Of a DNA stretch of 64,000 bases, positions 14,815 through 45,748 are shown piece after piece. The stretch lies in contig CAXXKM010000001.1 of the NCBI GenBank assembly GCA_963664435.2, forward strand, positions 704,001 to 768,000, in the 5' to 3' direction. Under the pieces are notes generated by a model that made no database searches, was not told the origin of the DNA, and saw only the letters and a list, made by a program, of their open reading frames with translations. A program made the position numbers and the translations under genes. Numbering within the stretch: position 1 is the stretch's first letter; each line of letters starts with the position of its first letter. The stretch comes from Longimicrobiales bacterium (GTDB lineage Bacteria; Gemmatimonadota; Gemmatimonadetes; Longimicrobiales; Gaopeijiaceae).

Positions 14815-15321
14815 ATGAGGCTACCGATCGTCACCGCCGTACTGACGCTTCTGCTGGCCGCGTACCCCGTCGGCGCCCAGGAACACAAGGCCGCTGAGAA
14901 GCGGGATGAGGACGCGACGTTCCTTCGCGTGCCCGCCGCCGAGGCCGGCCAGGACCACATTTACTCTGTTCGCGCGCGCGTGAGGCACACGACCGTGATC
15001 GTGCTCCCGGCATCCGAGAGGATCCTCGACTTCGTTGCCGGCGACTCGGAGTACTGGCACCTGACGGGTGCGGCCAACGTCGCTTACCTCAAGCCCCTGG
15101 CCGAGGACGCGGCCACCAACATCGCGCTCGTCTGCGAGTCGGGCCGCATCTACTCGTTTCTGGTCTCGGAGCACGGCGACGAACCCCCGCACCTGGTCGT
15201 CCGGGTCGAAGACGGACTGGATGCCGCGGGCATGTCCGGCACCGGCCTTCCCGCGTTCGTAGCGCGGAGCGAGGTCGCCGCCTACCGGGAGATGGCCGCC
15301 GAGGCGGCCGAGTCGGCGACG
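14815..15321 (+). pseudogene. virB9: VirB9/TrbG N-terminal part (gene interrupted by insertion)
   Basis: Signal peptide; HTTVIVLPASERI...YLKP...TNIALVCESGRIYSF; frame runs into the foreign insert at 15322. Confidence 0.8.
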
Positions 15322-15469
15322 GTAGCCTACTCTGATCCAGTAACATCCAAGGGCGTTCCGAGTAGTACAGCATATCGTTGTTATACAACGCTTTATCCAG
15401 ACTCCGACTGCTTCTTGTGCTCTCGTCACGTTCCTTGACGTCCAATCCCATCCCACATATTATGAGGTA

Positions 15470-16693
15470 ATGGATGACGTAACCCGCACCCCCGCCCCGA
15501 CCCGGAAAACCAAGCCGAAGGGCCGCCACCCCCACAAGCGGCTCTCGGCTGCCTTCGTGCGCGCCGCACCTCCCGGGAGGCACTGCGACGGTAATGGACT
15601 CTACCTCTACGTTCAGCCGAGCGGTGCGCGCAGTTGGGTGCAGCGGCTCGTCATTCGTGGCCGCCGCCGCGACTTCGGACTCGGCAGCGTTGCCTTGGTC
15701 TCTCTCGCCGAAGCACGCGAGAAGGCGCGGGCCAACCGCAAGCTCGCCCGCGAGGGCGGGGATCCGCTCGCCGAACGGCGTCGTGCGCGGGGCGTGCCCA
15801 GCTTCGCGGAGGCGACGAGGATCGTCCTGAAGCAGAAGCAGCCCGGGTGGCGCAGCAAGGCGCACGGGAAGTACTGGCTGTCGACTCTGGAACGCTACGC
15901 CTTCCCCCGGATCGGCAAGATCGCGGTCTCGGAGGTGGCCACGGCCGACGTTCTGGAGATCCTGACCCCGATCTGGCACACGAAGAAGTCCACGGCCCAG
16001 TCGGTGCATCAGCGCATGGGCTCGGTGTTGGAGTGGGCGGTGGCGATGGAGTACCGGACCGACAACCCCTGCGACCGGGTCCGGCCGGTGCTCGGGCCAC
16101 AGAATCGGGTCGTGAAGCACATGAAGGCGCTCCCTCATAGGGAGGTTGGAGCGGCGATCAGGAAAGCGAGGAGGACGGACCAGATGCCGGTGGCGCGCCT
16201 GGCGTTCGAGTTTCTGGTGCTGACGGCGGCGAGGTGGGGCGAAGTGCGTTGGGCCGAATGGTCGGAGATCGACTTGGGCGAAGCGGTGTGGACGGTGCCC
16301 GCCACGCGCATGAAGGCGAAGCGGGAGCACCGGGTGCCGCTATGCGGGCGGGCGCGGGAGATCCTTGACGAGGCGCGAAGGCTGGGCGGAGAGGACTGCC
16401 GGTTGGTGTTCACGCGGTTGAACGGACGGCCGCTTTTCGAGAAGCGGCTGCGCCAGCTGCTCCAGAAGCACCGGATCGCCGCGGTGCCGCACGGGTTCCG
16501 GTCGTCGTTCCGGGACTGGGCCGCCGAGGAGACGGACCATCCCCGGGAGGTGGTCGAGGCGGCGCTGGCGCACGTGGTCCAGAACAAGGTGGAAGCCGCG
16601 TACCGGCGTACCGACCTGTTCGAGCGGAGGCGGCGGCTCATGGATGACTGGGCAGCGTATCTCGCGGCCGGGAGCGCGGGCACCGAGACCTGA
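15470..16693 (+). CDS. P4-like tyrosine integrase with arm-DNA-binding domain
   Basis: DGNGLYLYV...SW...GLGS...VSLAEAREKA; LTAARWGEV, MKAKREH, PHGFRSSF, LAH, AYRRTDL. Confidence 0.93.
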   Translation: MDDVTRTPAPTRKTKPKGRHPHKRLSAAFVRAAPPGRHCDGNGLYLYVQPSGARSWVQRLVIRGRRRDFGLGSVALVSLAEAREKARANRKLAREGGDPLAERRRARGVPSFAEATRIVLKQKQPGWRSKAHGKYWLSTLERYAFPRIGKIAVSEVATADVLEILTPIWHTKKSTAQSVHQRMGSVLEWAVAMEYRTDNPCDRVRPVLGPQNRVVKHMKALPHREVGAAIRKARRTDQMPVARLAFEFLVLTAARWGEVRWAEWSEIDLGEAVWTVPATRMKAKREHRVPLCGRAREILDEARRLGGEDCRLVFTRLNGRPLFEKRLRQLLQKHRIAAVPHGFRSSFRDWAAEETDHPREVVEAALAHVVQNKVEAAYRRTDLFERRRRLMDDWAAYLAAGSAGTET

Positions 16694-16970
16694 CGCCTCC
16701 CGCGACGCGTTCGGAAGCCGTTTCCGGTCGGTCCGAAGGCTATTCGGGGAATCTACGGGCCACAGAATGGCCCAGAATCGACGATCCCGGGTCTCCGAGG
16801 GGTAGGGGTAGGTGGCAATCGGGCCGCGCGGCAGAGTGCGGCGGGGTCACGGGGAGTGATGGGTCGGCCGGTTGCCCTCGCGTCCTTGAGGCCGGCGACC
16901 TTGCCCGCGACGCCTCGATGGGCGTTGTTCCGGGCGGTGCCCGGAGAGGCGTTTTCGGCGGCTCCGCCGG

Positions 16971-17025
16971 GCTGGCTTGACCCACTGTTCTATGGTCAAG
17001 CCAGCATACCCCGTGTATAACACGG
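16971..17025. promoter_or_regulatory. oriT-like structure: perfect 12-bp inverted repeat followed by a second palindrome
   Basis: GCTGGCTTGACC-N11-GGTCAAGCCAGC, then CCGTGT-ATA-ACACGG. Confidence 0.5.
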
Positions 17026-17191
17026 AGGCTGACGAGGGGTGGCTCCGCTCCCCCTTCGAACCCCCTGAGTCTACTCCGCTCCCTTGAAGGTCACGGCTGA
17101 GGCGTCGCCCCTCATCCCGGCCATCTCCGGGTCGAAAAAGACTATCGCCGCGCGGGCGTCGCACGTGATCTCCTGATCGTCGACCCGGTCG

Positions 17192-18043
17192 TCAAATCTC
17201 GGCGAAGAACTCCGGTTGAGGTCTTGTCCTCTTCACCAACTCCGTGCTTACCCCGAGTTCCAGCTTCCTCAGGAGCCCACAAAGAGCCAATCCGTCGATG
17301 AGGTCGATAGCCGGCGCTCCATCCCGTACGGCTTCCCGCACTGCACCGCTCGTGAACCGGCCCGTCGTCATGAACAGGCCCTTGTCCGCGCGACCGACCA
17401 TTGCCCCTCTGAAGTCTCGGATCTCCCTCGCTTGCACGGAACCAGCGTACCTCTTGCACTGAAATCGCACGTGAAACGAGATGAGGTTGACCCGCAACAC
17501 ACCGGCCCCGTCGATACCGCCGTCGCCAGATCGTCCCGTTACCTCAACCTTCGTGAAGCCCGATTCCCTCAGAATCCGCTGACACAGGCGCTCAAAAGCG
17601 GCAGGCGTCAATTCACGCAAGATAGCCAACAGATCTTCCTCCCAGTCGCTTTCAGTCGAGGGCTCGGGGTCCTTCGACCTGTCGGCAGTTGCCGGCTTGA
17701 CGCGTTCGCGCCAGCGACGCTTGCGCTCCCGACGGACGAGATCGCGCAACTCCTCGTCCGAAGGCATCGCTCGGCCCTTCGGAGTGATCCTCCAAACGCC
17801 GCGGGCCGTGTTGTCGACGGCACCGACCCACTTGAGGTTGGTCCGTGCCCACGCGAGGCGGTAGCCAACTTCTGTCTGCGGGCCTTCGCCGTGAAGCTCG
17901 TCGGCAACCACATCCGGCAAAGCCAACAGCCGCGTGACCTGTTCCGAGAGTTCTTGGATCGACGCCGAACCGCCGTTGTTCTTCAGAACCTCCAGCGTCG
18001 GCCAGAGCAGGTCTTTGTAGGTCGGCATCTCTGGTGCCGTCAC
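17192..18043 (-). CDS. mrr: Mrr-family type IV restriction endonuclease
   Basis: Mrr N-terminal PTYKDLLWPTLEVL...RLAWARTNLK; catalytic DGGIDG...QCKRY. Confidence 0.9.
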   Translation of the reverse strand: MTAPEMPTYKDLLWPTLEVLKNNGGSASIQELSEQVTRLLALPDVVADELHGEGPQTEVGYRLAWARTNLKWVGAVDNTARGVWRITPKGRAMPSDEELRDLVRRERKRRWRERVKPATADRSKDPEPSTESDWEEDLLAILRELTPAAFERLCQRILRESGFTKVEVTGRSGDGGIDGAGVLRVNLISFHVRFQCKRYAGSVQAREIRDFRGAMVGRADKGLFMTTGRFTSGAVREAVRDGAPAIDLIDGLALCGLLRKLELGVSTELVKRTRPQPEFFAEI

Positions 18044-18520
18044 CGGTCAGCCTCCAGGCGTAAACTCGAACGTGGCCAACGATCCATGTCGGGGAATGTA
18101 GCCTCGCACGGCTTCGCGGTGTAGATCTTCGTAGCGGCTGAGAAGCCCGTCCCGCCGACTCGGCAAGCCAGGGGGAGCAGAGATGTCGAATCCTGACGCC
18201 GAACCGTTTTTCCGTCGTCTTTGACACCATCCAGGAGACCGGCGGAACACTCTCCCGAGCGCTCCAGCACTGCGCCCGCCGGTCCCCCGATCTCCGGGGC
18301 GGGCTCGCCCGCCCCTCCCATCGGGGTTGGATTCCGAGACTGTCGTGTCACAGCTTCCCGCACGTGGCTCGAAGGCCGCGATCCGTCGGGTCGTCCACAA
18401 CCGTCCCGTACGGGCGATTGGAATCCCGTCCGGGAAGAGGTATGAAATGAGGTAACCTCTTGGTCGCGGGTCATGTAAGTATTTGCATAGCAGTCACTTA
18501 TGATCTTTTCTGACACACTG

Positions 18521-18859
18521 GCGGCGCGCAGAGCGCAGGCGGCGGCGGACGCGGAGATCGAGGCGTTCCGCGCCTCCTACCCCACCCGGCTTGCGTTCGA
18601 GTACCGGCTGGACCGGGATGCCTCGAAGCGTCCATTCCTCGTCGAGGCGATGTGGCATGACGGGCAGTTCACCTATCTGCGATCGCGCGCCCAGGAAGCG
18701 CCGGCGCTCTATGAACTGCGGGACGGCGAGCCGAGCCTGGTCGCGTTCGATCTGACAGAGGACGGCCTCTACGTCGCGCGCCGCGTGCTGGGCGACGGCT
18801 GGCTCCAGATCGGAGACGAGCGGCTGCGCTGGCGGTTCGAGCCCGGGGACGCGCGATGA
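18521..18859 (+). pseudogene. virB9: VirB9/TrbG C-terminal part
   Basis: YPTRLAFEY...MWHDGQFTYLR...EAPALY...LVAF; abuts the virB10 start. Confidence 0.8.
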
Positions 18860-20129: not shown

Positions 20130-21035
20130 ATGCTCCACCGCATCCTCGCCCCCGCCGTTTTCCTTGCGCTGTTCACCCTTGCGAGCCCCAGGCCCGCGAG
20201 CGCCCAGTTCGACTTCGGCAGCTGGGTCCAGCGCGCCACGATCATCGCGAATCAGATCAGGCAGATCACGAACCAGGTCAGCCAGATCCGGTCGATGGCC
20301 CGCCAGCTCACCGAGCTCGAGGACCAGCTCGATCACATGGAGCGCGCCGCGCGCGGCGAGATCGACGCGCTGCTCGCGCCGTTCTCCCGGCTCGCCGCCG
20401 AGCCCGTGGGACTGGTGCGCGACGGACTCTCCTGGAGCGCGGACTTCCAGGGCCCGGCACGACAGACGGTCGATGCCGTTCGGGGCATGGGAAGCGGCGG
20501 CCGCTCGTTCACCGGACTCTGGCAAGGCGCGAGAAGCGCGGCCGACCGGGTGTCGGAAGCCGACGTCGTCGCGCTGTTCCGCGACTTGCCGCCCGAGGCC
20601 GCCACGCGCGCGGCCGCGGACTACCGCCGCGCCCGCGAAGCCGCCGACCGGCAGCGCGTGCTCGACTACGCGACGCTCGACGCGGCGACCGAACTCGCCG
20701 AGACCATCGAGAGCGCGCAGGGCTCGTTCGCCGGCCTGACCGCGAACGGCAACCTGTCCAACACCGCTCTGCAGCAGGCCGGGGTCGCGGCCGCGCTGAG
20801 CCAGGGCCAGATCAACGCGGGCGTCGCACAGGTGCTCGCCCAGCAGGCCGCGCGGGAGGCGAGCCGGGCGCAGTTGGCCGAACTCGCGCGCCTCGAAGGG
20901 CTCGCCGCGTGGAGTGAAGGCCGGACGCGCGCGAACGCGATGGCGGGGACGCTTCGCGACGCGGCGTCCCGGAACCGCACCGCGCTCCGCGACGGGCTGC
21001 TTCTCAAGATCCCGTCGTTCTACGCGGGCAACTAG
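20130..21035 (+). CDS. TrbJ/VirB5-like secreted protein
   Basis: Signal peptide ASAQ, Q-rich coiled coil (NQIRQITNQVSQ), position before virB6. Confidence 0.6.
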   Translation: MLHRILAPAVFLALFTLASPRPASAQFDFGSWVQRATIIANQIRQITNQVSQIRSMARQLTELEDQLDHMERAARGEIDALLAPFSRLAAEPVGLVRDGLSWSADFQGPARQTVDAVRGMGSGGRSFTGLWQGARSAADRVSEADVVALFRDLPPEAATRAAADYRRAREAADRQRVLDYATLDAATELAETIESAQGSFAGLTANGNLSNTALQQAGVAAALSQGQINAGVAQVLAQQAAREASRAQLAELARLEGLAAWSEGRTRANAMAGTLRDAASRNRTALRDGLLLKIPSFYAGN

Positions 21036-22168
21036 TGTTGTGCCGCTAAAGCGGTGTTGGCACGGTTGACCTTAGCCAGGATGTCGCGAACGGTGGCGGT
21101 CCAGACGAAGGGTTTCGGGGCGCGGTTCCTGTGGTCGATGTAGGACGTGATCGCGTGGACGAGCTGGCCGACGCTGTGGACGGCGAGGCGTTTGAGCTGG
21201 CGCTGCGTGAGTTCGGAGAAGAAGCGCTCGACGAGATTGAGCCACGAGGACGAGGTGGGCACGAAGTGGAAGTGGACTCGGGGGTGCCGGTCCAGCCAGT
21301 CCTTCACTCGGGCATGCTTGTGGGTGGCGTAGTTGTCGAGGATGAAGTGCAGGTCGAGTTCCGGGTCGCATTGTTTTTCGACGGTGCGCAGGAAGCGGAG
21401 GAACTCCTGGTGCCGGTGACGGGGCAGACACTGGTGGATGACCTCTCCGGTGGCGACGTCCAGCGCCGCGAACAGCGTCGTGGTCCCGTGGCGCTTGTAG
21501 TCGTGCGTCATGGTGCCCGCCCGTCCCTTCTTGAGCGGCAACCCCGGCTGGGTCCGGTCCAGGGCCTGGATCTGGCTCTTCTCGTCGAAGGAGAAGACGA
21601 TCGCCCGCTCCGGCGGCGCCACGTAGAGCCCCACCACGTCGCGGAGCTTCTCGACGAAGCGGGGATCGGTGGAGAGCTTGAAGTAGCGCACCCTGTGGGG
21701 CTTCAGTCCGTGGGCGTTCCAGATCCGCCCCACCTGGCTGTGATGCAGCCCCATGCCCTCGGCCATCAGGCGGGTGCTCCAGTGCGTCCCCCGCGGCGGT
21801 TTCTCCTCGAGCGTGCGGCGCACGACCTCGGCCTCGACTTCGGGCGTGATCGTACTTCGCGGCCGACCGGGGCGGGACCGATCCTCAAGTCCCGCGAGCC
21901 CCTCTTCGTCGTACCGGTCCAGCCATCTTTGCACGGTCGGCAGCGAGACGCCGATCTCGCGGGCCAGCGTCCGGCCCGGCAAACCTCCGGCCGAACCCAG
22001 TATGATCCGGGCGCGCTCCACGCGCCGCTGCGGGGTCGTGCGGGCTCGAACCCATCCCTCGAGCTCCTTGCGGTCCCCGGGTCGCAATCGAATCCTTCGC
22101 AGAGCAGGCATGCATGGAAGATAGCGGCTTCTCCATGCGTTAACCCTGCCACTTATGCGACACTACAC
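21035..22168 (-). mobile_element. IS630-family element, copy 1 (transposase 21032-22111)
   Basis: DEKSQIQAL, HDYKRHGTTTLFAAL, DNYATHK, SWLNLVERFF; TA duplicated within CTAG; imperfect IRs GTGTAGTGTCGC/GTGTTGTGCCGC. Confidence 0.95.
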
Positions 22169-22183
22169 TAGGGGGCGTTCGCG

Positions 22184-23181: not shown

Positions 23182-23850
23182 ATGAAACGAGACAGGAACG
23201 CCGGCCGCGAGTACGCCGAGATATGGGGCGAGGCCGTGCAGGCGAACCGGAAGCTCCGCACCATCCTGATCTTCCTCTCCGCGAGCTGCGTCCTCGGCGT
23301 CTTCGTCCTGCTGCGGATCGCGGGTGCCGAGCCGCCCAAGCCCATCGTGGTGCGGGTCGACGAGGTCGGGCGCGCCGAGGCGCTCGCCTACGAGGCCGCC
23401 ACCGCCCAGGCCGATCCGCTCGATCCCACGACCAAGTACTTCCTGAACCGGTTCGTCAACGACTTCCACTCGCGCCGCCGCGTGACCGTCCAGGAGTACT
23501 GGACCCGGAGCCTCCGGTTCCTGTCGACCGAACTCGCGAACGCCGCGTTCGCCAGCGACGGCGACGAGGTCGCGAGCGTGGCGGCCGGCACGGCCGAGAC
23601 CGAACGCCAGGTCGAGCGGGTCGTGCTCCGCATCCATCCCTCGCCCGAGCCGCCGCACGGGGCCACCGCCGACTTCGAGGTCGTGCATCTCGCGGCCGGA
23701 CAGGAGGTCCTGCGCGAGCGCTGGTCCGTCGCGCTCCGGTTCGAGTTCCTCGACTCGATCCCGCCCGAGCTGGTCGTCCACAACCCCATGGGCATCCTCA
23801 TCACCTACCTCCAGGCCGACCGGGCGCTGGTGACGGGGGAGGAGCGATGA
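23182..23850 (+). CDS. virB8: TrbF/VirB8
   Basis: KPIVVRVDEVG...YFLNRFV...HNPMGILIT. Confidence 0.85.
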   Translation: MKRDRNAGREYAEIWGEAVQANRKLRTILIFLSASCVLGVFVLLRIAGAEPPKPIVVRVDEVGRAEALAYEAATAQADPLDPTTKYFLNRFVNDFHSRRRVTVQEYWTRSLRFLSTELANAAFASDGDEVASVAAGTAETERQVERVVLRIHPSPEPPHGATADFEVVHLAAGQEVLRERWSVALRFEFLDSIPPELVVHNPMGILITYLQADRALVTGEER

Positions 23851-24779
23851 TCGCGCACCTCAAAGGGCGCGAGCAGGCGCTTGAACCGTTCGGCTGGAAG
23901 GGACGCGAGGCCGAGTGGATCGCGCTGGTGTGCCTGCACAGCGGCGTGTGCACGCGCGCCCAGTGGACGCGGTTCATGAACGCGCACCCGGAACAGGTCC
24001 GGCGCGGCGTCCACGCGCTGATCGCGGCGCGCGTCGCGAGCGAGGAGACCGAGCCCCGCATCGCCGGCATGGGCCGGGTCTGCCGGATCTTCTCACGGCC
24101 CGTCTACCGGGCGCTCGGCGCGGAGCACATCCGCCACCGCCGTGGAGCATCGACCGAGGTGCTCCTGCGGCGCCTGCTTTCGCTCGACTACGTGATCGAG
24201 CATGCCGACCTGCCTTGGCTGCCGACCGAAACCGAGAAGGTCGCCGCGTTCGAGGCGCTCGGCATCGAGCGCTCGCTGCTGCCCGTGCGCGTGTACCGGG
24301 GAGCCGCCGGGAACACCCGGCGCCACTTCCCCGTCAAGCTGCCCGTCGCGCTCGACTCGGCGCGCGCCCTGTTCGTCTACGCCGACCCCGGCCACGACAC
24401 CTCGACGGCGCTCCGCTCGTGGGGCAAGGCGCACCGCGGACTCTGGCGCGCGCTACGGAGACTTGGCCGGTCGGTCGAGGTCGTCGCTGTCGCCCGCACC
24501 GGGCGCGAACTGCAGCGTGCGCGGCGGGTGACGCGCGGATGGGCCGGGTCCACCGGACGCGCCGGAACCGAACCCGGGACGGCCGAGGAACTTGCCCGCA
24601 TCGAGCGGGCGATCCTTCAGGGCGCGGTCCACGTCCTCGAGGAGTTCGGCGGCCTCCAGGCCGCGCTGAAGCGCAGCGTCGCGCTCGAAAGACAAGCGCG
24701 GCGGCGGGGCGGGCGCGGATCGATCGACCGCGGCGTCGCCTGGCGGACCGAGCGACTCGCGAGGGTCCGCTACCGATGA
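23847..24779 (+). CDS. Conserved hypothetical ICE protein (possible winged-helix DNA-processing accessory protein)
   Basis: Coupled to virB8 (ATGA overlap); GWKGREAEWIALVCLHSG...RRLLSLDYVI. Confidence 0.55.
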   Translation: MIAHLKGREQALEPFGWKGREAEWIALVCLHSGVCTRAQWTRFMNAHPEQVRRGVHALIAARVASEETEPRIAGMGRVCRIFSRPVYRALGAEHIRHRRGASTEVLLRRLLSLDYVIEHADLPWLPTETEKVAAFEALGIERSLLPVRVYRGAAGNTRRHFPVKLPVALDSARALFVYADPGHDTSTALRSWGKAHRGLWRALRRLGRSVEVVAVARTGRELQRARRVTRGWAGSTGRAGTEPGTAEELARIERAILQGAVHVLEEFGGLQAALKRSVALERQARRRGGRGSIDRGVAWRTERLARVRYR

Positions 24780-29368: not shown

Positions 29369-30271
29369 ATGAGAGGGAGAGGAATGTTCGACCGCGAGGT
29401 CGAACCGGACCCGCGCCCCGCCGCGCCACCCAGCCGCAATCGCTTGCCGATGCGGGACGGCCACCGCCGAGAATACGCTGCGGACCGGGAGCGCGGGTCC
29501 ATCTCCTTCCCCGAACGTTGCGCCGAAGCGCTGGCCGACATCGGCGTCCACGGCGCCGTATCGTTCCGCGACCTCGCCGAGGCGCGCTTCGGCGGCCATC
29601 CCTACACCACGCGGCGGGCCGTCGACACGTGGGTCCGGGACGGGCTCGTCCGAGAGACCACCGTCACCGGCCCGAACGGCAACCCGTTCAAGATCCTCAC
29701 CCTCACCCCGGCCGGCGTCGCCGACGCCCGGAAGCTCGCCGCCGAGCGGGGGATGGACCCGGAACAGCGGATCGACATCCCCCGAATCCGGGACGCCCAG
29801 GCCGGCCACGACACCGCCGTCTACCGCGCTTGCGCTGCGGAACGGGAGCGGCTCCGCAGGCGGGGCGCCACGGTGCGCCGCCTGCGGCTCGACGCCGAAC
29901 TCAAGAGCGCAGTCGCGCGAGCGAGCGAGGCGGAACGGGCGCGGAACGGCAAGCGCGCCGCCGATGCCGAGCGGCAACGCACTGCCGAAGAACTCGGGCT
30001 GCCTCTCGACGAGGCCGGCCAGGTGCTCTACCCAGACGCGCAGATCGAGTACGAGGACGCCGAGGGACGCACCGGACGCATCAACGTCGAGGTCGCGTCC
30101 GGCAACTACCGCGAACCGGCGCTGACCGCCAAGGCTGCCGCCGGGTTCGCGATGCACGCCAGCGGCCCGGCCGCCGCGGGCATGCTCCGAAAGCTCGGCT
30201 TGGGCCGGGGCGACGACGGCGCCCGGACCGGGGGACGCGCCGACCGCGATACGGCTTCCGTCGAACTCTGA
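29369..30271 (+). CDS. Winged-helix plus PD-(D/E)xK protein, candidate Replic_Relax/MOB_C-like relaxase
   Basis: LTLTPAG (wHTH wing), GHDTAV, YPDAQIEY...INVEV. Confidence 0.5.
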   Translation: MRGRGMFDREVEPDPRPAAPPSRNRLPMRDGHRREYAADRERGSISFPERCAEALADIGVHGAVSFRDLAEARFGGHPYTTRRAVDTWVRDGLVRETTVTGPNGNPFKILTLTPAGVADARKLAAERGMDPEQRIDIPRIRDAQAGHDTAVYRACAAERERLRRRGATVRRLRLDAELKSAVARASEAERARNGKRAADAERQRTAEELGLPLDEAGQVLYPDAQIEYEDAEGRTGRINVEVASGNYREPALTAKAAAGFAMHASGPAAAGMLRKLGLGRGDDGARTGGRADRDTASVEL

Positions 30272-30606: not shown

Positions 30607-31001
30607 CGCGCATGAAGGATCGACCGACCGTCGAGGGCCTGCCCGCCAACTGGCGCAGACAAGCCAAGTCGCTCCGCCGTTACGGCGGCGAGACCCCGGC
30701 CACCGCGATCGAACGCTGCGCCGACGACCTCGAAGCCACCCTCGTCGAGCGCGACGAGACCACGTTCTCGCTCGTCGAGGCTTCGCGGGAGAGCGGATAC
30801 TCCGCCGACCACCTCGGACGGCTCGTCCGCGACGGCAGGATCCCCAACGCCGGACGGCCCGGCGCGCCCAGGATCGCCCTCAAGGACCTGCCCCGGAAGG
30901 CGCATGTCCCCGCCGATCCGCGACTAGCGGAGAAGCCTCGCCGTAGCCAAGTTTCAAACGCGCAGATCGTGCAGTCCATCATCGAAAAAGGAATCGAATG
31001 A
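30603..31001 (+). CDS. HTH excisionase-like protein
   Basis: FSLVEASRESGYSADHLGRLVRDGRIP; directly upstream of the integrase. Confidence 0.6.
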   Translation: MTRMKDRPTVEGLPANWRRQAKSLRRYGGETPATAIERCADDLEATLVERDETTFSLVEASRESGYSADHLGRLVRDGRIPNAGRPGAPRIALKDLPRKAHVPADPRLAEKPRRSQVSNAQIVQSIIEKGIE

Positions 31002-32161
31002 TGGCACGCACGAAACGTAGCCGGCGCGCGTACAGCGCCGGAGAATGGGGCCGGAACCGGGTGAGGGTGTTTCCCGATCCCAAGACCGGCCTGTACCAGA
31101 TCGAGTGGCGCGAGAACGGGCGCAGGCTCACAAGGTCGCTCAAACACCGCGACTGGGCTCGCGCGAAACGGCAGGCGGACGAGTTCGCCGCCGGGTTCGC
31201 CAAGCCGGAGCCGAACGGCAAGCAGGAAGCCAAGCCCGAGCCGCTCACGCTGGAGCGGCTTTTTGACATCTACACGGAAGAGGTGACGCCCACCAAGGGC
31301 GAGGGGACACGGCGGCGCGACCGGGTCGCGACCGCGATGTTCCTCCGTTTCTTCGGCAGGGACCGAAGGCCCGAAACCCTGTCCCAGCGCGATTGGGACC
31401 GGTTCATTCAAGCGCGGCGCGCGGGCAGGGCCGGTGCCTCGGGCAAGCCCGTGGGCAATCGGACGATCGAATGGGATCTGACGTTCCTGCTCGCGGTCCT
31501 CAACTGGGCCGAGAGGTCGAAGGACGAGGAGGGAAGGCGGCTCCTCGATAGGAACCCGCTCAAGGGCTTGAGGAAGCCCAAGGAAAAGAACCCTACGCGG
31601 GTTGTGCTTTCCGAGGAGGAATACCAAGCGCTACTCCGAGTTTCTCGGAAAGTCGGCTGGCGATTCCACGTCGCGCTCGTGCTCGCGCATGAAACCGGGC
31701 ACAGGATCGGAGCCATCCGCAAGCTCCGGTGGTCGGACATAGACCTCGACGGCGGAGTTATCCGGTGGCGCGCGGAGCATGAAAAGACCGAATACGAGCA
31801 CCGGACGCCGGCGACGGCCGAGGCGATTGCCGCCTTGGAAGAAGCGCAAAGGTATGGCAATGGCACTGGAGACCCGCCAGTGCTTCCCGCGCCGAGGGAT
31901 CCGTCGAGGTGCTTGTGCCATATGTCGGCCCACCGCATGTGGGGCAGGGCGGAGACGCTCGCAGGGCTGGAGCCGAAACACCGCCGAGGCTGGCACTCGC
32001 TGAGGCGCAAGTTCGCCTCCGACCTCATGGACCAGCCGCTGAAGGTGCTCTGTGAACTCGGCGGATGGAAGGAGGCCCGGACGGTCCTCACCTGCTATCA
32101 GCGGGCCGACGAGGGACAGCTTAGGAAAGCCCTGGCAGACCGCCGCAGGGTTCGCCCCTGA
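30998..32161 (+). CDS. Tyrosine integrase of the ICE
   Basis: ETGHRIGAI (R), EHEKT (K), WHSLRR (HxxR), GGW, CY. Confidence 0.9.
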   Translation: MMARTKRSRRAYSAGEWGRNRVRVFPDPKTGLYQIEWRENGRRLTRSLKHRDWARAKRQADEFAAGFAKPEPNGKQEAKPEPLTLERLFDIYTEEVTPTKGEGTRRRDRVATAMFLRFFGRDRRPETLSQRDWDRFIQARRAGRAGASGKPVGNRTIEWDLTFLLAVLNWAERSKDEEGRRLLDRNPLKGLRKPKEKNPTRVVLSEEEYQALLRVSRKVGWRFHVALVLAHETGHRIGAIRKLRWSDIDLDGGVIRWRAEHEKTEYEHRTPATAEAIAALEEAQRYGNGTGDPPVLPAPRDPSRCLCHMSAHRMWGRAETLAGLEPKHRRGWHSLRRKFASDLMDQPLKVLCELGGWKEARTVLTCYQRADEGQLRKALADRRRVRP

Positions 32162-33148: not shown

Positions 33149-34567
33149 CTAGGGCTCAAATCTGGTTTCCTCGGCCTCCACCACTGGGAAGGGAAAGCGA
33201 TCTCCCGTCCCCAGGTGCTCGCAATACAGGCACTCTGCAGTACATCCGGAACTCACATCGCTGTCCATCATCCCGGTTGCAAAGTGATGGGTCTGGACTC
33301 CCGGATTACCAATCCCGACAGGTTGCACGACCATGCTCAGACTCTGGCATATCATCATCCCGCTCGCAGACAGCGCGAACCCGAACACGTTCTCATTTCT
33401 TCGCAGCAAATGGTCATCGGGAAGCCGCTCGATGTACGTCGGATCGTCAAGCAAACCTTGCCTCTCAAGCGTGACGTTCGCCGGGTCGAACTGGGCGAGG
33501 CATTCCAAACATGCCCTTCCCGGCATCGCGACGTGTGCGCCCCATTCGGCCCCTCGCATCGACCCGTCCGGCTTGACGCGGACGTGCACCCCTCCGTCTA
33601 CGACCGGAATGTGGTGCGCGAATGCTACCATGTTGAGCACTTGCCTCGGCCAGGGCCGATCCACACAACTGAACAGTACGTCGCAATCCAGCGCCGCCCT
33701 CAAGCCGCTCTCCCTGGTCACCGGCTTCCTTCTCCGTCTCACGTCGACATCGTCGGCGGTCGCATGCTTGGACAGGTGCTCGCCCGCCACGTCCACCTTG
33801 AACCGACCAATGTCGTCCACGCTGGCGTGAAGAAGCCGATCCAGGTTGTGCTCCTTCACCGTGTCGAAGTCAATCAGGCTGATGGTCTCGACACCCATTC
33901 GCGCCAGGCTCTCCGCGACGATCGCGCCCACGCTTCCGACCCCGACAACGCCGCAATGGAGCCGGGCGAGCGTGTGCTGCTTCTTCTCGCCCCAAGCCGA
34001 ATAGGTCCTCTTCAGCACTTCCTTGAACCTCGGCTTCGGTGCTAGCTCGTCCATGAACGTCACGTCGAAATCATCCCCGACTACGCGAACGCTGCCACAC
34101 CACCGGCGTTCGTACTTCCGCCGCCCAACCCGGGTCCAGAAACGCCCGCTCAACGCCCCATCAGTTCCCATGGTCAGGCCCACGAGCGGCAGGCCCGTCT
34201 CCCCGAGTATCGAAGGCGCCGTGCTTCGCTCCGTGTCCACGTCCTCCCCACTCATCCCCTGCCACCCCGGCGTGAAATGACTGTGTAGCAGTGCGATGCC
34301 GGCGTTCCTCGACATCGCAGCCTCCGCCACCCGGTCCAGATAATTCGGCAGAAAGCTCGCGCCTCCATGCAGGCGCCTTTCGTTCGCGACGGGAAGAACA
34401 ACCTCCGTCAATACTGCGGTCGTCCGCGTCTCGCCGGTGCTCGGCTTCCACAGGACGAAACAGAGGTCCTCCTGCCGCTGCCCCTTCTTGATATGTTGCA
34501 GAAGGTGTCTTCTTAATGCAGCGGCGACTTCGGACGTCATCACCACGCTGTAGTCGACCGAGCTCAT
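33149..34567 (-). CDS. JAB-like domain + E1/ThiF fusion (BubCD-like)
   Basis: N-terminal LHSH...MSGED; GVGSVG, DFDTVKEHNLDRL, CVDRPWPR, CLEC; ATGA overlap with the E2 stop. Confidence 0.88.
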   Translation of the reverse strand: MSSVDYSVVMTSEVAAALRRHLLQHIKKGQRQEDLCFVLWKPSTGETRTTAVLTEVVLPVANERRLHGGASFLPNYLDRVAEAAMSRNAGIALLHSHFTPGWQGMSGEDVDTERSTAPSILGETGLPLVGLTMGTDGALSGRFWTRVGRRKYERRWCGSVRVVGDDFDVTFMDELAPKPRFKEVLKRTYSAWGEKKQHTLARLHCGVVGVGSVGAIVAESLARMGVETISLIDFDTVKEHNLDRLLHASVDDIGRFKVDVAGEHLSKHATADDVDVRRRRKPVTRESGLRAALDCDVLFSCVDRPWPRQVLNMVAFAHHIPVVDGGVHVRVKPDGSMRGAEWGAHVAMPGRACLECLAQFDPANVTLERQGLLDDPTYIERLPDDHLLRRNENVFGFALSASGMMICQSLSMVVQPVGIGNPGVQTHHFATGMMDSDVSSGCTAECLYCEHLGTGDRFPFPVVEAEETRFEP

Positions 34568-34956
34568 TGGCTCTCCCAGAGTCCCCGGACGTGCTCCATG
34601 TACCGCATCGCGTTTCTTGCGCCCGACGCCCAGTTGGGATGAGGTCTGCTCCAATACTGCCAGCCGTCTCCGAAATGCTTGCTGTGCCGTGTGCTCGAGT
34701 GAATGTGGCCGTGAGGGTGTGGACCGTCCGAGCGGTTTGCGTGGATCAGCTTGTGAACATGTGGACCGGATGGCGGCGACAGTGGAAAATCAGACGGTAC
34801 GACGATCCCGATGTCCACCTTCAGCCCCTCGTACTTGCCGTCAGACACACGGTACCTTGGGATCATGACGTGCTCGTCGCCCAACTCCTCGACCTCCATT
34901 TCGGCTACCCGCAACTGCTGGGCGAAAAGGGCTCCTCCGACGAGTATCTGGTTCAT
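34564..34956 (-). CDS. Prokaryotic E2/UBC-like protein lacking cysteine (BubB-like)
   Basis: SDFPLSPPSGPH...WQYWSRPHPNW; no Cys in 130 aa. Confidence 0.78.
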   Translation of the reverse strand: MNQILVGGALFAQQLRVAEMEVEELGDEHVMIPRYRVSDGKYEGLKVDIGIVVPSDFPLSPPSGPHVHKLIHANRSDGPHPHGHIHSSTRHSKHFGDGWQYWSRPHPNWASGARNAMRYMEHVRGLWESQ

Positions 34957-34959
34957 CAG

Positions 34960-35571
34960 CTATCCGTCGAGTTGGGAAACGCCCTTTGGCCCGGTGTAGT
35001 GGCCAACAAACGCCGCTCCCTCGTACAGGAAGAGCAACTCCTCACCCTTCTCGTACCTGATCCTCTCGCCGTCCTTGATCTGGACCAGGTAGTTGCTGTC
35101 AGGATCGAGACCACCCAGGCGGAGAATGGCGTTCGCCGACATCGGGTTTTCTGGCGCTTCATGTGGCTCGTGGTCGACCGTAATGGCGATGGGTGGCTCC
35201 CAGACGATCTCCACGCCGTCGAGGCACTTCTTGACCAGTGCCATCGCCTCCGCTGCCGCCTTGGGCGGCTCGCCCCCACCGTCCAGTTTCAGGAGAAACT
35301 GGAACGAGGTCACCGTCACGGGTGTGAAGCGGACCGCCCAGCCTCCCCGCGCCTTCTCGAACACCCAGGCCGCCTCATCCGGCTGCACCTTGTTGTCCTC
35401 CAACACCGGCGCCCCCGGCCCATCGGACTTCAAGCTCTCCGCCACCGACATCACCTCGTCCGTGCTCACGCCCTCCTGGCTTCGCAGCAGCGGGCCCATC
35501 TCGCCCAGCAGTTCGACGCCCCAGCAACGCTCCCCGGCTTCCGACACTCTTCCTATCTTCAACAACGACAT
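34960..35571 (-). CDS. Ubiquitin-like (multi-ubiquitin family) protein with extra N-terminal domain
   Basis: C-terminal ITVDHEPHEAPENPMSANAILRLGGLDPDSNYLVQI...FVGHYTGP, ending in Gly; first gene of the E2/E1 operon. Confidence 0.75.
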   Translation of the reverse strand: MSLLKIGRVSEAGERCWGVELLGEMGPLLRSQEGVSTDEVMSVAESLKSDGPGAPVLEDNKVQPDEAAWVFEKARGGWAVRFTPVTVTSFQFLLKLDGGGEPPKAAAEAMALVKKCLDGVEIVWEPPIAITVDHEPHEAPENPMSANAILRLGGLDPDSNYLVQIKDGERIRYEKGEELLFLYEGAAFVGHYTGPKGVSQLDG

Positions 35572-35837
35572 CAGTCACCTCCTCCGTTGGTCACGTTTGG
35601 CCCGAGGCTTAGCGCCCTCGGGGCCACATCAAGGCTCTCGCGGCACGCTCGGGCTTCCTTCCACCTCGTTGGCGTGTCGTTCCCCTCGGCCGCGCCTGCT
35701 AATGTCTATTAGCGTGCTTGTGATGTCAAGCGCCCACCGAGCATGCTTGATCTCCTCGAGGTTCGGAGCTAGACTGAAGCTTGGGAAGCGCAGTCGAGGA
35801 AGACGTGCTTGGTGCCCCTGTCTCGGAGGGATGCAGC

Positions 35838-36185
35838 GTGACGCCCACACTCGGACAGTATCTTGCTTCCATCCGTGCAGACCGGAAGATGACCCTGCGT
35901 GAAGTAGAGGAGGCCACCGACAAAGGAGTCTCGAACGCCTACCTCAGCCAAATCGAGAATGGCAAGATTCGTAAGCCCTCACCCAATATCCTTCATTCAC
36001 TGGCCGAGATCTACGCGATCAGCTTCGAGAATCTGATGGCCAAGGCTGGCTATCTCATGCCATCCTCACGCCGCTCGGACGCTGAGCGCCACGGTCGCGT
36101 GGCGACGTTCGCCGAGTACAACTTGACGGAGGAGGAGGAATCGGAGTTGCTACGATTCCTCCAATTCATCCGCAGCAAATCGTGA
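35838..36185 (+). CDS. XRE-family HTH regulator (CapH-like)
   Basis: LGQYLASIR...TLREVE...SNAYLSQIENG...PSPNILHSLA; GGAGG before GTG 35838. Confidence 0.9.
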   Translation: MTPTLGQYLASIRADRKMTLREVEEATDKGVSNAYLSQIENGKIRKPSPNILHSLAEIYAISFENLMAKAGYLMPSSRRSDAERHGRVATFAEYNLTEEEESELLRFLQFIRSKS

Positions 36186-36188
36186 CCC

Positions 36189-37238
36189 ATGATTCGACCT
36201 GACGACAGTAGGCTCGACCCGGCGGATCTCCGCGCGGTCGAGGAGCAGGCCCACCGCCTCCTCGACCGCGCAGATGCTTGGAGCGAATTCCCGATCCCCG
36301 TCAACGATATTCTCTCCGCTGCCAAGGTCCACGTTGCCCGGACCACCGCTTTCGACCCGGCCGCAATCGTCTCTTACGTCAAGGACACGGCGGTCGACAC
36401 GGGCACCCTCGTTAAATCCGCGATCAGTAAGGTGTTCGGCGTATACGATGCCGGCGCCGCCGTCATCCATGTCGACCACACCCTTGTGGCAGCCAAGCAG
36501 ACCTTCCTCAAGCTGCACGAGGTGGGGCACCACGACCTTCCCACTCACCGCAAGATGTTCCGGTTCTTCCAAGACTGCCGGAAAACCCTGGACCCGACCA
36601 TCGCCGATCAGTTCGAACGTGAAGCCAACAACTTCGCGCGGTTCCTCCTGTTCAAGGGCCGTACCTTCGCTGAACACGCCGCCGATTACCCCTTCGAAAT
36701 CAAGACACCAATCACACTCGCCAGGAGATTCGGCGCTTCGGTTTACGCCTCTTTTCGTGAGTATGCGCGTACCAACCCGAGGCCGTGCCTCGTTCTTGTT
36801 CTCAACCAACCTGAAACCACCGAGAGTACCGGCGTCCGCGCGACGGTTCGACGCATCGAACCCTCACCCTCCTTCCTCACCCGCTTCGGCCGGCCGTCGA
36901 TCGAGACCGTTACTCCCGACCATCCGCTTTGGCCCGTCGTTCCCCTTGGCCGCAGAATGACCCAGCCGATGTCGCTGCCGTTCGCCGACTGCAACGGGCT
37001 ACAACACGAATGCGTCGCCGAAGCGTTCGATACTACGTACAACATCCTGATCCTGCTCTATCCTCTGAGCGCACTCAACACCAAGCGTATTCTCGTGCCA
37101 GCCGCAATAGACTCCGCCGAGCGGACGAGCTCCGTATCCGTTCCGCGCCAAGGCGTCCACGCATCTGGATCTACGGAACCTCTGCAGACGGTGGAAGGAA
37201 GGGCCGGCGCTGTTAGCGAAGCGCCGAAACCGGCCTGA
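36189..37238 (+). CDS. ImmA/IrrE metallopeptidase (CapP-like)
   Basis: FLKLHEVGHH HExxH; EREANNFA...LLF. Confidence 0.88.
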   Translation: MIRPDDSRLDPADLRAVEEQAHRLLDRADAWSEFPIPVNDILSAAKVHVARTTAFDPAAIVSYVKDTAVDTGTLVKSAISKVFGVYDAGAAVIHVDHTLVAAKQTFLKLHEVGHHDLPTHRKMFRFFQDCRKTLDPTIADQFEREANNFARFLLFKGRTFAEHAADYPFEIKTPITLARRFGASVYASFREYARTNPRPCLVLVLNQPETTESTGVRATVRRIEPSPSFLTRFGRPSIETVTPDHPLWPVVPLGRRMTQPMSLPFADCNGLQHECVAEAFDTTYNILILLYPLSALNTKRILVPAAIDSAERTSSVSVPRQGVHASGSTEPLQTVEGRAGAVSEAPKPA

Positions 37239-37260
37239 AGCAAATGGAGCGCGATACTCT

Positions 37261-39758
37261 ATGACCGAAGGGCTACGACAACGGACTGGGAAGATTGCGA
37301 TCGCTCTCTCAGGGGGTGGTCACCGTGCCTCGTTGTTTGGACTCGGCGTGTTAATCTATCTCACCGACGCAAGTCGGAACCGAGATGTCGTGTCTATTTC
37401 TTCGGTGTCAGGTGGATCACTTACGAATGCCTGCCTGGCCCAGAGCGGAGACTACTCCAACCTCACACCGGAAGAGCTGGAAAGTCGCATCGTCCGACCC
37501 TTAGCTCGACGAGTGGCGCACCTCGGTACACTCTGGGCGTCCTGGACTACATGGATCTACGTCGTCACGCTATTTGCTGGAATCGCGGCGTTGGTCGCGC
37601 TTTACTGGCTCCCGGTGGATCTCCTCTCGCGCACGATCTATTTCGTTCTCGGGCTTACCGGTTGGGGCCTCCTCGCCGCCTTTCGAGGCAAGATGTGCGC
37701 CCTAGTGTAGTGTCGCATAAGTGGCAGGGTTAACGCATGGAGAAGCCGCTATCTTCCATGCATGCCTGCTCTGCGAAGGATTCGATTGCGACCCGGGGAC
37801 CGCAAGGAGCTCGAGGGATGGGTTCGAGCCCGCACGACCCCGCAGCGGCGCGTGGAGCGCGCCCGGATCATACTGGGTTCGGCCGGAGGTTTGCCGGGCC
37901 GGACGCTGGCCCGCGAGATCGGCGTCTCGCTGCCGACCGTGCAAAGATGGCTGGACCGGTACGACGAAGAGGGGCTCGCGGGACTTGAGGATCGGTCCCG
38001 CCCCGGTCGGCCGCGAAGTACGATCACGCCCGAAGTCGAGGCCGAGGTCGTGCGCCGCACGCTCGAGGAGAAACCGCCGCGGGGGACGCACTGGAGCACC
38101 CGCCTGATGGCCGAGGGCATGGGGCTGCATCACAGCCAGGTGGGGCGGATCTGGAACGCCCACGGACTGAAGCCCCACAGGGTGCGCTACTTCAAGCTCT
38201 CCACCGATCCCCGCTTCGTCGAGAAGCTCCGCGACGTGGTGGGGCTCTACGTGGCGCCGCCGGAGCGGGCGATCGTCTTCTCCTTCGACGAGAAGAGCCA
38301 GATCCAGGCCCTGGACCGGACCCAGCCGGGGTTGCCGCTCAAGAAGGGACGGGCGGGCACCATGACGCACGACTACAAGCGCCACGGGACCACGACGCTG
38401 TTCGCGGCGCTGGACGTCGCCACCGGAGAGGTCATCCACCAGTGTCTGCCCCGTCACCGGCACCAGGAGTTCCTCCGCTTCCTGCGCACCGTCGAAAAAC
38501 AATGCGACCCGGAACTCGACCTGCACTTCATCCTCGACAACTACGCCACCCACAAGCATGCCCGAGTGAAGGACTGGCTGGACCGGCACCCCCGAGTCCA
38601 CTTCCACTTCGTGCCCACCTCGTCCTCGTGGCTCAATCTCGTCGAGCGCTTCTTCTCCGAACTCACGCAGCGCCAGCTCAAACGCCTCGCCGTCCACAGC
38701 GTCGGCCAGCTCGTCCACGCGATCACGTCCTACATCGACCACAGGAACCGCGCCCCGAAACCCTTCGTCTGGACCGCCACCGTTCGCGACATCCTGGCTA
38801 AGGTCAACCGTGCCAACACCGCTTTAGCGGCACAACACTAGCCTTCCGGCGGACCCTCTACTCGGCGGGCAGACGCCCCAAGCTGCTTCGCGAAATCGAA
38901 CGCAAGAATGTGCAGCACATCATTTGTGCGACAGACGTGCGCGCAGGGCACCATGTGTATTTCTCGGGTGATTTCGTGTGCTCCTATCGGCTCGGATGGG
39001 GGTGTCCCGCTGATTTCCGCTTGGCCGATGCCGTACAGTCATCGGCAGCATTCCCCGGTGCGTTCCCACCACGTTGGATACCCACCAAGCAGCACAGCTT
39101 TGCGGACGGTGCTCGAAAGACTCCCCGGTACATGGTGTTGTCAGACGGCGGAGTCTACGACAACATGGCCGAACAGTGGCCCATCGGAGTACGTTCCCGC
39201 CAGAGACGGTGGCCGACGCAGTCCGGTGCGCTCAAGGCACCCAATTCGCTAGTAGTCGTCGATGCGTCCGGACCGATGCGATGGGCATCCGTCCGGCGAC
39301 TGCGCGTGCCGGCTATTGGGGAGATTTTCGCGTTGCTCCGCGTCATCGGTGTGCTTTACGATAAGACGACAACCACACGCCGGAGCACCTTGGTGGACCG
39401 GTTTGATCGCGCGGCACGAAAGGGACGAGGCCTCGAAGGGGCTCTTGTCATGATCAATCGTAGTCCGTATCGGACTGCGGACTACTTCAGCAAGCGAACC
39501 GAGACTTGGCCTGATCGGGCCAAGCGCGCGACCCGCGTACTCCAGGTGCTCGGCGACGAGAACCGTGAGAGGTGGGAAAACCTCGCTGACGAGAATCTCC
39601 GCGTGAAAACCACACTCTCGCGCCTTGGAGGCGAGGTGGCCGCCGGTCTTCTCTACCACGGATATGTGTCAGCAATGGCCAACTTGCACGTTATCCTTGG
39701 CTTCCCTCTGCTCCCGGTTCCGCCTGTTGACCGCTTTAGGCGGATGGTCGCTAGGTAA
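37261..39758 (+). pseudogene. Patatin-like phospholipase with TM insert, interrupted by IS630 copy 2
   Basis: SGGGHRA and SSVSGGS before the IS, SDGGVYDN after; removing the IS plus one TA rejoins MCALAFRRTLYS...VQHIICATD in frame. Confidence 0.88.
37705..38838 (+). mobile_element. IS630-family element, copy 2 (transposase 37762-38841)
   Basis: Transposase translation identical to copy 1; same 1134-bp length; CTAG target. Confidence 0.95.
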
Positions 39759-40068
39759 GTAGGCCAATGAGCGCGGCGGTCTTCTCGGATGTGCGCGCAT
39801 CAGTCAATCTAGGATTGCCCCGCGCCCAAGTGTCTTCAACACAAGCCAACCGAGATTCGCCCCACACGTCGGCCCGGCGCTGAGGCGCCAAGACATCCTT
39901 GTGTTTTGCCCCTTCGCTCCATGCGGGTTGGCGCAGATCGTCCGATTCTGGCTGCATGTTCACGCAGCCTATCTTCAGCGATCAACCTCATGCACTGGGG
40001 ACGAACGATCTGCCCTTCTTCCCGTTGTCCAACCAAATGTTGGCTGTCGGTGACCGGATCCCGCACGG

Positions 40069-41013
40069 GTGGTCGGCCTTGGAGAGGATCCCCAGTGCTC
40101 AGTGCAGCTAGCTAGGTCAGCGTTTTGGGCCGTGTGCGACCCCGCCAGGTACCTGGTCAAGGGGGAGTGCGGGAAGAGCCCTGCGGAGCGGGTGCGGATG
40201 ATCGATCGGGACGGACCGTTGAGTCTTTCGAGGCAGTGTGCGCTGCTGGGGGTGAGCCGGTCGTCGCAATACTACCGGCCGAAGGGGGAGAGCGCGGAGA
40301 ATCTGGCGCTGATGCGGCGCATGGACGAGCTGCACATGGCGTATCCGTTCTACGGCAGCCGGCAACTGATGCGGCATCTGCGCCGCGAGGGCGTCACCGC
40401 GGGCCGGCACCGGATCCGGCGGCTCATGCGCATGATGGGGATGGAGGCGACCTACCGGTGGCCGCGCACGAGCGTGGCGAGCCCGGAGCACCGGGTCTTT
40501 CCGTACCTGCTGCGCGGCCTGACGATCTCGCGGGCGGACCACGTGTGGTGCGCGGACATCACCTATGTCCCTGTGACGCAGGGCTTTTTCTATCTTGTGG
40601 CCGTGATGGACTGGGCGACCCGGCACGTGCTCGCGTGGCGGCTGTCGAACACGATGGACGCGTCGTTCTGCGTCGAAGCCCTGGACCACGCGCTGGGCTG
40701 GCGGGCTCCGGAGATCCTGAACACCGATCAAGGCGCCCAGTTCACCAGCGAGGCGTTTACGGACCGGGTGCTGGCGGCGGGCGTGACGTTCTCGATGGAC
40801 GGCCGGGGCCGCTTCCTCGACAACATCTTCATCGAACGGCTGTGGCGGTCGCTGAAGTACGAGGCGGTGTACTTCCACGAGCTGCGGGACGGCCTCGACG
40901 CCAAACGCATCATCGGCTCGTGGATCGACTTCTACAACGAGGTGCGCCCACACTCGTCGCTGGACGGACGGACGCCGGGCGAGGCTTATCGCGAGCGCGC
41001 GGAGGCGTGGTGA
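40069..41013 (+). mobile_element. IS3-family transposase OrfB; OrfA apparently missing
   Basis: PFYGSR, VWCADITY, NTDQGAQF, DNIFIERLWRSLKYE. Confidence 0.85.
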
Positions 41014-41269
41014 GGACGATCCGGCGCAACGCCACCCAACCGACGCAACGACGCCTGCGAGCGTGGGAATTGCCGCACGCCGGTTCCCTCCGTCCACCCG
41101 TCGGCAGCGAGTCCCGACGGGAAGACGGAGGTTATGTTCAAACCGGGCTCGGGGGAAAGCGTCCAGACCGACCGGCTCGGGACCCCGCCGGTCCCCGGTC
41201 AGACGCGCTCGGCCCGGGCTCGAGCGAGATCACCGAGGGCTTTGGAGACCATCGGAATCCACCTTAAGC

Positions 41270-41425: not shown

Positions 41426-41432
41426 CTTCCAC

Positions 41433-45746: not shown

Positions 45747-45748
45747 GT

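Follow-up and report, generated by a model that had tools for sequence, protein, structure and literature searches.

A small integrase element in virB9 of a Longimicrobiales bacterium, a probable secondary site for a clade of likely oriT-only islands found in relaxase genes

A 64,000-nucleotide stretch of a Longimicrobiales genome (hereafter the window; GenBank assembly GCA_963664435.2, contig CAXXKM010000001.1, forward-strand positions 704,001 to 768,000) was examined by profile searches and sequence comparison. Within a type IV secretion system (T4SS) island of this window, the gene virB9 (TrbG/CagX family) is interrupted by a 3,208-bp integrase element, which is likely, on the basis of its sequence, a mobilizable island of the oriT-only kind, comprising an integrase gene, an origin of transfer (oriT) and an mrr gene. 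We consider that the element probably entered virB9 as a secondary site, and that it likely travels on a borrowed relaxase of the ColE1 type and a borrowed mating channel. All four other members of its clade (L004, L005, L006 and L104, with integrases 97-98% identical; hereafter the sister elements) lie inside genes for PF03432 relaxases, at the same codon. Integrase relatives were taken from the best 80 of 515 confirmed matches in genome collections and the best 80 of 565 in metagenome collections.

Insertion in virB9 and content of the element

Both parts of the split gene match the CagX/VirB9 model PF03524, the 5' part (14815-15311, forward strand, E 3e-13) with its residues 47-121 on profile positions 11-86, and the 3' part (18520-18859, forward strand, E 5e-10) with its residues 14-103 on positions 106-194. 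Neither contains an internal stop, in agreement with an original prediction, made from the letters of the window, that virB9 is split by an insert of about 3.2 kb into stop-free halves. The 5' part has 77-89% amino acid identity to the three intact virB9 copies of the genome, all of which belong to sister islands, and deviates at one of 103 conserved columns, the 3' part at none of 73; these undecayed halves are compatible with a recent insertion and with a maintained one.

The two heptamers quoted in the original prediction occur where it placed them, but its 3,205-bp register, with GGCGACG at 15315-15321 as left core, is one codon off. The insertion measures 3,208 bp, with the left core (attL) GTCGGCG at 15312-15318 and the right core (attR) GGCGGCG at 18520-18526, both on the forward strand. 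The cores are identical at six of seven positions and differ at position 2; attL agrees with the relaxase-gene address and not with virB9, and attR is virB9 sequence. On the element side they are bordered by 5-bp arms at 15319-15323 and 18515-18519 (forward strand), which are imperfect inverted partners of one another, the former a putative core-type integrase site and the latter with the same letters in L004-L006. The 3,208-bp register is adopted because of the intact genomic virB9 copies, two of three of which read A-E/Q-A-A-R across the insertion site, the spacer lengths of VirB9 homologues and the core offsets of the sister elements, and the same three observations rule out 3,205 bp. The core of the sister elements precedes the integrase start by 158 nt, which corresponds to position 15312 in the window, and the right-end offset is likewise equal. 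In silico removal of 3,208 bp yields a VirB9 of 278 aa with a 20-residue spacer, and removal of 3,205 bp one of 279 aa with a 21-residue spacer; among the 107 parsable sequences of the best 119 of 1,707 homologues, the spacer has 20 residues in 58, 31 in 46, 24 in two, 18 in one and 21 in none. The claim that excision restores virB9 therefore stands for 3,208 bp, where the rejoined protein aligns with the common homologue spacing, and falls for 3,205 bp, where it gains a residue. With the corrected register the rejoined peptide changes from AAESA(A/T)RR to AAE(A/S)ARR, and the circle junction predicted earlier is shifted. An ATG at 18500 was discarded as an element-supplied start for the 3' half of virB9; the sister elements have ACG there, and its presence is probably due to chance.

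The element encodes an arm-type tyrosine integrase of 407 aa (15470-16693, forward strand), in which arm-binding, central and catalytic domains are all present (PF13356, PF22022 and PF00589 above cut-off). Residues R255, K282, H341, R344, H368 and Y378 were located in it, and from the family motif we take these to be catalytic. A sigma-70-like promoter (15435-15463, forward strand; 10 of 12 matches, 17-nt spacer; one found against 0.2 expected in shuffles) ends 7 nt before the integrase ATG, and the transcript would be leaderless. As had been pointed out, ATGAGGTAA occurs near both element ends, and these are its only two occurrences in the window. The left copy (15462-15470, forward strand) overlaps the integrase start and is kept in relatives, and the right copy (18447-18455, forward strand) lies 64 nt before the right core, a distance equal in relatives; both are putative arm-type integrase sites, and the left one, covering the start codon, would allow integrase autorepression. 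The earlier label of a P4-like integrase is correct with regard to the arm-type domain set but not to the P4/CP4-57 family model NF007246, on which the protein scores 124 against a cut-off of 434, nor to the targets, which are coding sequences. A tRNA target was also rejected, the window having no tRNA gene and the closest relatives adjoining coding sequences.

On the reverse strand, the element carries a gene for an Mrr-family (type IV-like) restriction nuclease of 283 aa (17192-18043; PF04471 E 2e-28, PF14338 E 6e-20; PADLOC mREase_IV E 4e-24) with both the Mrr_N and the Mrr_cat domain. A beta-propeller protein takes its place in the sister elements, and Mrr is predicted to be interchangeable cargo that would cut modified incoming DNA. 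The integrase and Mrr account for all Pfam matches within the element, in which no relaxase or mating-pair genes were found, nor alpA, primase or capsid-interference genes such as mark P4-like satellites or phage-inducible chromosomal islands (PICIs); among its 22 other frames there is no excisionase, with one sub-threshold helix-turn-helix match (E 0.07). The original picture of a satellite with restriction-type cargo thus agrees with an integrase-bounded, Mrr-encoding element; that the insert holds only these two genes is right in that both are intact, but it overlooked the promoter and an oriT-like segment.

This segment, of the ColE1/MbeA type, lies between int and mrr of the relaxase-free element (~16965-17075, forward strand) and consists of a 12-bp hairpin (16971-17005; fold z -4.3) followed by a second hairpin. 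A profile built from eight other genomic copies matches it with E 1e-17, and 15 of its central 18 nt are identical to ColE1 1459-1476, located ~400 nt upstream of ColE1 mobC on the same strand; the ColE1 nick presumably falls inside this shared stretch. The segment has 17 other matches in the genome, seven of them directly upstream of a mobC-relaxase pair, and by profile search it follows the integrase gene in 13 of 15 loci with integrases ≥85% identical (here, as in the wider count given below, L009 and L105 appear to be one sequence). These matches establish its homology at the sequence level. The ten relaxases of the genome, which are the probable helpers, have 29-34% identity to ColE1 MbeA, and eight of the ten frames are 507-533 aa long. 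Their mobC-relaxase genes match PF05713 and PF21983, fall below cut-off on NF047848 (E 2e-23), and depart from the HEN motif III, with three histidines where ColE1 MbeA has H, E and N. Genome-wide, 26 oriT-like profile matches compare with ten relaxase genes, and the many copies with no adjoining relaxase may mark further oriT-only elements.

Relaxase genes as the usual target

The closest integrase relatives originate from Longimicrobiales, Gemmatimonadota and Candidatus Palauibacter. The sister elements are inserted antisense to the relaxase gene, at the motif VADSL. In the three with both ends present (L004-L006), the core GTCGGCC occurs twice with a 7/7 match, embedded in 9-11-bp repeats, and the right end is common with the window element, with different cargo. 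Over the first 1.38 kb the elements of the clade are 97-100% identical and the relaxase flanks only 80-89%, which indicates separate, recent insertions; one assembly has the same element in two different relaxase alleles, as L004 and as L005. Removing the elements in silico yields relaxase frames of 505, 521 and 507 aa. The integrase, promoter, arm sites and oriT-like segment of the window element are intact and 96.5-97.4% identical to these recently mobile sisters.

The core GTCGGC(C/G) would correspond to the antisense of the Val-Ala-Asp codons in VADSL, with C/G at the Val wobble base. All ten relaxase genes of the genome are uninterrupted at the target codon, three with GTCGGCG and three with GTCGGCC, and two of the three GTCGGCG sites also carry the three bases that precede the core at attL. 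Judged by these letters, the address of the element is an exact relaxase wobble allele and matches virB9 at only six of seven positions.

virB9 as a probable secondary site, and other readings

On an arm-plus-core score, virB9 reaches 5 of 10 arm positions with one core mismatch, compared with 7-8 of 10 and no mismatch at the relaxase sites; the value of virB9 is equalled or exceeded at 28,111 positions of the genome, and that of the best relaxase site at 63. Of the two virB9 arms, the right-hand one reaches 1/5. Cores agree at 7/7 positions in all 16 relatives with a right end at E<1e-5, and in 22 of 31 with any right-end match. An element-derived tail was present in none of the best 119 VirB9 homologues, no match spanning attR was found in 18 other genomes of the genus, and virB9 was contiguous at 12 of 12 loci retrieved from 11 of those genomes. 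A comparison suggested earlier, whether related integrases recur in virB9, thus gave no second virB9 insertion in other species, and the counter-scenario raised alongside it, with relatives elsewhere and virB9 as a one-off site, largely describes what was found, except that relaxase genes, in place of tRNA genes, are the usual site. With one mismatch tolerated, a right-end pattern search of 201 family genomes lacked stringency, its matches being near the reversed-pattern control, and was set aside. Integration across mismatched crossover regions leaves the element core on one side and the target core on the other, and ICEBs1 excises at a reduced level from secondary sites whose crossover regions are mismatched (PMC3715440). 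The arrangement here, attL holding the element core and attR that of virB9, is the one expected from crossing mismatched cores.

In the mechanism we propose, the integrase would be transcribed from its own promoter and would recombine a core of 7 bp that lies between imperfect inverted arms of 5 bp, aided by the two arm sites as lambda-type integrases are. The virB9 site would have offered six of seven core matches and one good arm, and integration would have left the core of the element at attL and that of virB9 at attR. Excision would give a VirB9 of 278 aa, one position of which is either Ala or Ser; it is likely inefficient because the cores are mismatched, and this copy likely leaves rarely. 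It would probably need an AlpA-type excisionase, provided in trans by the host island or by a relaxase-bearing element. A MobC-relaxase pair of the genome could then nick the circle at oriT, an intact sister T4SS could export it, and re-entry would take place preferentially at a relaxase site.

A number of observations weigh against an accidental entry into virB9 or narrow its basis. The clade sample is small (four loci from three assemblies, with L104 lacking a right end), the score was devised by ourselves from few sites, and the core-match count let the register slide, with 11 of those right ends having trained the model; at fixed register L057 has one core mismatch. The genome collection holds one genome per species, and a virB9-adapted sub-lineage could be missed in it. 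Four public runs (X1-X4, of 22 listed; contigs only, from one study and possibly the source sample) were also searched, and X3 yielded a contig that shows 13 differences in 1,735 nt and likewise extends from the cargo across attR into virB9. The virB9 insertion is therefore present in at least one related strain and not unique to the assembly; X3 shares study and organism label, and the insertion may be inherited. Distant family members adjoin virB4 (L027), the coupling-protein gene (L135) and ardC (L067 and L068, at the same ardC residue), with integrases 64-73% identical and in the same island type, and a different element lies inside the virB5-like gene of a sister island. This pattern resembles a bias toward conjugation genes more than a chance hit on one of 28,111 sites. 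The split virB9 halves show no decay beyond the level of the sister copies, the oriT-like segment is present in only 27 of the 88 wider-family loci with enough downstream DNA, and the support comes from sequence, with excision, nicking and transfer being predictions. Further out in the family, the clade with integrases 89-93% identical (left junctions of L007-L015) has the core CACCGTC and lies mostly within genes for surface proteins that contain Ig-like or leucine-rich repeats. The genes next to other members encode a transposase, an integrase or a PQQ dehydrogenase, and the family as a whole may plausibly be biased toward genes of mobile elements. The adjoining positions are 9681-9848 in L027 (virB4), which carries its own mobC-relaxase, and 9106-9828 in L135 (coupling protein).

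A target switch in progress would read the same bias differently: the integrase family would re-address itself by capturing mismatched cores, preferentially in conserved conjugation genes, and virB9 would be a new true target, with the circle able after one excision to inherit GGCGGCG and then to prefer virB9 sites. Sub-clades do differ in core, between the relaxase genes (97-98%), the Ig-like repeats (89-93%) and others including virB4, coupling protein and ardC; an empty GGCGGCG core is available in two sister islands and in L135, and re-targeting within a class of helper genes has been published for helper-embedded phage satellites (PMC10111431). We nevertheless regard this as unlikely, since a single lineage is seen in virB9, its still mismatched cores bear no trace of a cycle of excision and re-entry, both empty sites in the sister islands of the same genome are unoccupied and the right-hand virB9 arm fits poorly. 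Trapping followed by selection, in which the element cannot leave and is kept for Mrr defence and perhaps for lowering the cost of one of four T4SS islands, would suit the mismatched cores, the lack of an excisionase among the 22 other frames, a neighbourhood rich in defence genes and the similar depth of cargo and island-specific contigs in X1-X3 (a weak indication, as depth is not copy number). It is very doubtful given the intact state of the element and its closeness to recently mobile sisters; nothing shows selection, and contigs drop rare excision products.

One of the two options in the original prediction was an excision-controlled conjugation switch. In such a switch, induction of the island, for instance through its AlpA, would trigger excision, restore VirB9 and couple transfer of island and element. 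A similar model has been proposed, and not tested, for integrative and mobilizable elements (IMEs) in traG of the Tn5252-family integrative and conjugative elements (ICEs) (PMC5704250). Precise excision would indeed restore the frame, the halves are undecayed, and the host island encodes AlpA with its other genes full length. Restoration of the frame is automatic for conservative site-specific recombination, though, and is not evidence of regulation. With three intact virB9 copies in the cell the switch would be of little importance; the site is atypical and mismatched, the operon contains a second, unrelated insertion, an insertion sequence (IS), and the oriT type points to the relaxases of other elements and not to the Replic_Relax-like protein of the island. 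Gene-splitting elements such as skin in sigK and the comK prophage, whose excision restores the gene, occupy dedicated single-copy sites and have a shown regulatory trigger; here no trigger is shown, the target gene is redundant, and the interrupted gene is not a recurrent target of the clade, which otherwise sits in relaxase genes. The contigs are of little help to a switch either. A joint from 15311 to 18520, skipping exactly 3,208 bases, occurs in three of the four runs (X1, X2 and X4, depth 25-30; absent from X3), but the likeness of 92% that was applied admits the sister island, which is 94-96% identical and fits the joint, and island-specific contigs have a similar depth (26-27 in X1 and X2), so it is not counted as a sign of excision. 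No circle-type joint is listed in the contigs of the four runs, which is uninformative as contigs drop rare forms. Taken together, a switch appears quite unlikely. That the satellite disables conjugation of its host, the other option put forward originally, is not supported by the intact virB9 genes and two full-length sister T4SS sets; because of these, VirB9 could likely be supplied in trans. A further, low-depth joint from 16989 to 18249 (X2 and X4) skips mrr and part of the oriT-like segment, and possibly derives from a sister element with no or different cargo.

Entry into virB9 as a secondary site remains our preferred reading. A bolder and more tentative extension of it, which we hold to be possible but doubtful, is that the clade represents a minimal conjugative satellite residing in the relaxase gene of its own helper, which would be relaxase-negative until excision, that its 7-bp address drifts by mismatch capture, and that the virB9 copy is a jump from the relaxase tier to the secretion channel.

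Known systems and the genomic neighbourhood

OriT-only islands, elements in helper genes and secondary sites are already known. The closest published counterpart is iOriT (Ares-Arroyo et al., bioRxiv 10.64898/2026.01.13.699239), which is likewise att-delimited, with one tyrosine integrase and an oriT common with co-resident elements that encode a relaxase; it too lacks relaxase and mating genes and has a defence gene beside oriT. The window element is an att-delimited integrase island devoid of relaxase and mating-pair genes, whose oriT resembles by sequence that of relaxase-bearing elements in the genome. A three-party dependence is also described there, a third of oriT-only hitchers using the relaxase of another hitcher and the channel of a third element (10.64898/2026.01.13.699239). 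The present element differs in size (3.2 kb against >4 kb, with one 2-kb exception) and in host (Gemmatimonadota-type against six clinical Proteobacteria species), and insertion into the relaxase gene of a helper is not described in the parts of that source cited here. IME_traG, IME_SNF2, IME_maff2 and Tn6104 (PMC5704250, PMC7168690) are similarly site-specific in a conjugation gene that excision is predicted to restore, but they are elements of Firmicutes with serine integrases and typically their own relaxase, in contrast to the tyrosine integrase and lone oriT found here; and unlike IMEs in conserved ICE genes, the window element does not have virB9 as its usual site. A hitchhiker model for elements inside conjugation genes has already been proposed (PMC5704250), and that of an element in an essential transfer gene of its helper, excising to restore it, had been proposed and not tested for essential genes according to the relevant part of this 2017 review (PMC5704250). 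Excision tests on two streptococcal elements inside conjugation genes were negative (PMC7168690). There is a precedent for a relaxase gene as insertion site, since that of Tn6002 has an erm(B) element at its 3' end (PMC7168690).

The streptococcal IME_oriT (PMC7563843) also uses another integrative element as host, with some members at other sites, but targets oriT and has its own Rep-trans relaxase. Helper-embedded PICIs (PMC10111431) share integrase sub-clades at different sites inside helper genes, and two co-oriented arm-like motifs placed asymmetrically round the crossover; they are satellites of phages, possess alpA and primase and share the orientation of the late genes, whereas here the element is alpA-free, the helper conjugative and the relaxase insertions antisense to the target gene. 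In the limited literature searched, no published match was found for an oriT-only clade in the relaxase gene of a helper, and the new part is thus a 3.2-kb oriT-only element whose clade targets the relaxase gene of its probable helper, which makes this satellite clade noteworthy. The clade provides a system of very small size in which matched (relaxase) and mismatched (virB9) sites occur naturally, with empty cognate sites in the same genome, and helper-embedding and drift of integrase targets are therefore directly testable in it.

The genome is 4.5 Mb long in three contigs, with 68% GC. The runs with a habitat label are sponge metagenomes, and the host is likely sponge-associated. The host T4SS island spans ~26 kb (6466-32272, ends approximate and set by homology to sister copies) and comprises alpA, virB2/3/4/9/10/5-like/6/8, a coupling-protein gene, virB11, ardC, a Replic_Relax-like gene and its own integrase gene. 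Three sister islands with ~80-96% DNA identity lie elsewhere in the genome. In two of them every T4SS gene tested is full length, and in the third, closest one the virB5-like gene is split by an 11.8-kb element (L216; G000:C3 ~559900-571720). This element carries an integrase, an oriT-like segment, mobC and a relaxase, and its island also has an IS in an 858-aa surface-protein gene. The unrelated second insertion in the host island is an IS630-type element (21032-22171, reverse strand). It occupies the TA within the stop codon of the virB5-like gene, ahead of virB6, and may have a polar effect from virB6 onward. A second near-identical copy occupies 37702-38841 of the window, and several 99-100% identical copies occur elsewhere in the genome.

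Two island genes, at 29369-30271 and 23850-24779, have no convincing Pfam match. For the former, the resemblance to Replic_Relax relaxases lies in protein-model features alone (score 0.90), which make it the foremost candidate for the relaxase of the island itself. The island integrase (30998-32161) has dozens of 74-78% identical relatives across the genome, suggesting a very large load of related integrative elements. Defence genes cluster round the island (33149-50067, 60035-61741 and 1004-2799 of the window), including a 6A-MBL system above cut-off (41433-44959), E1-like, CapP-like, patatin, MBL and GmrSD/HEC-06-like genes, and a GmrSD-N and HEPN pair.

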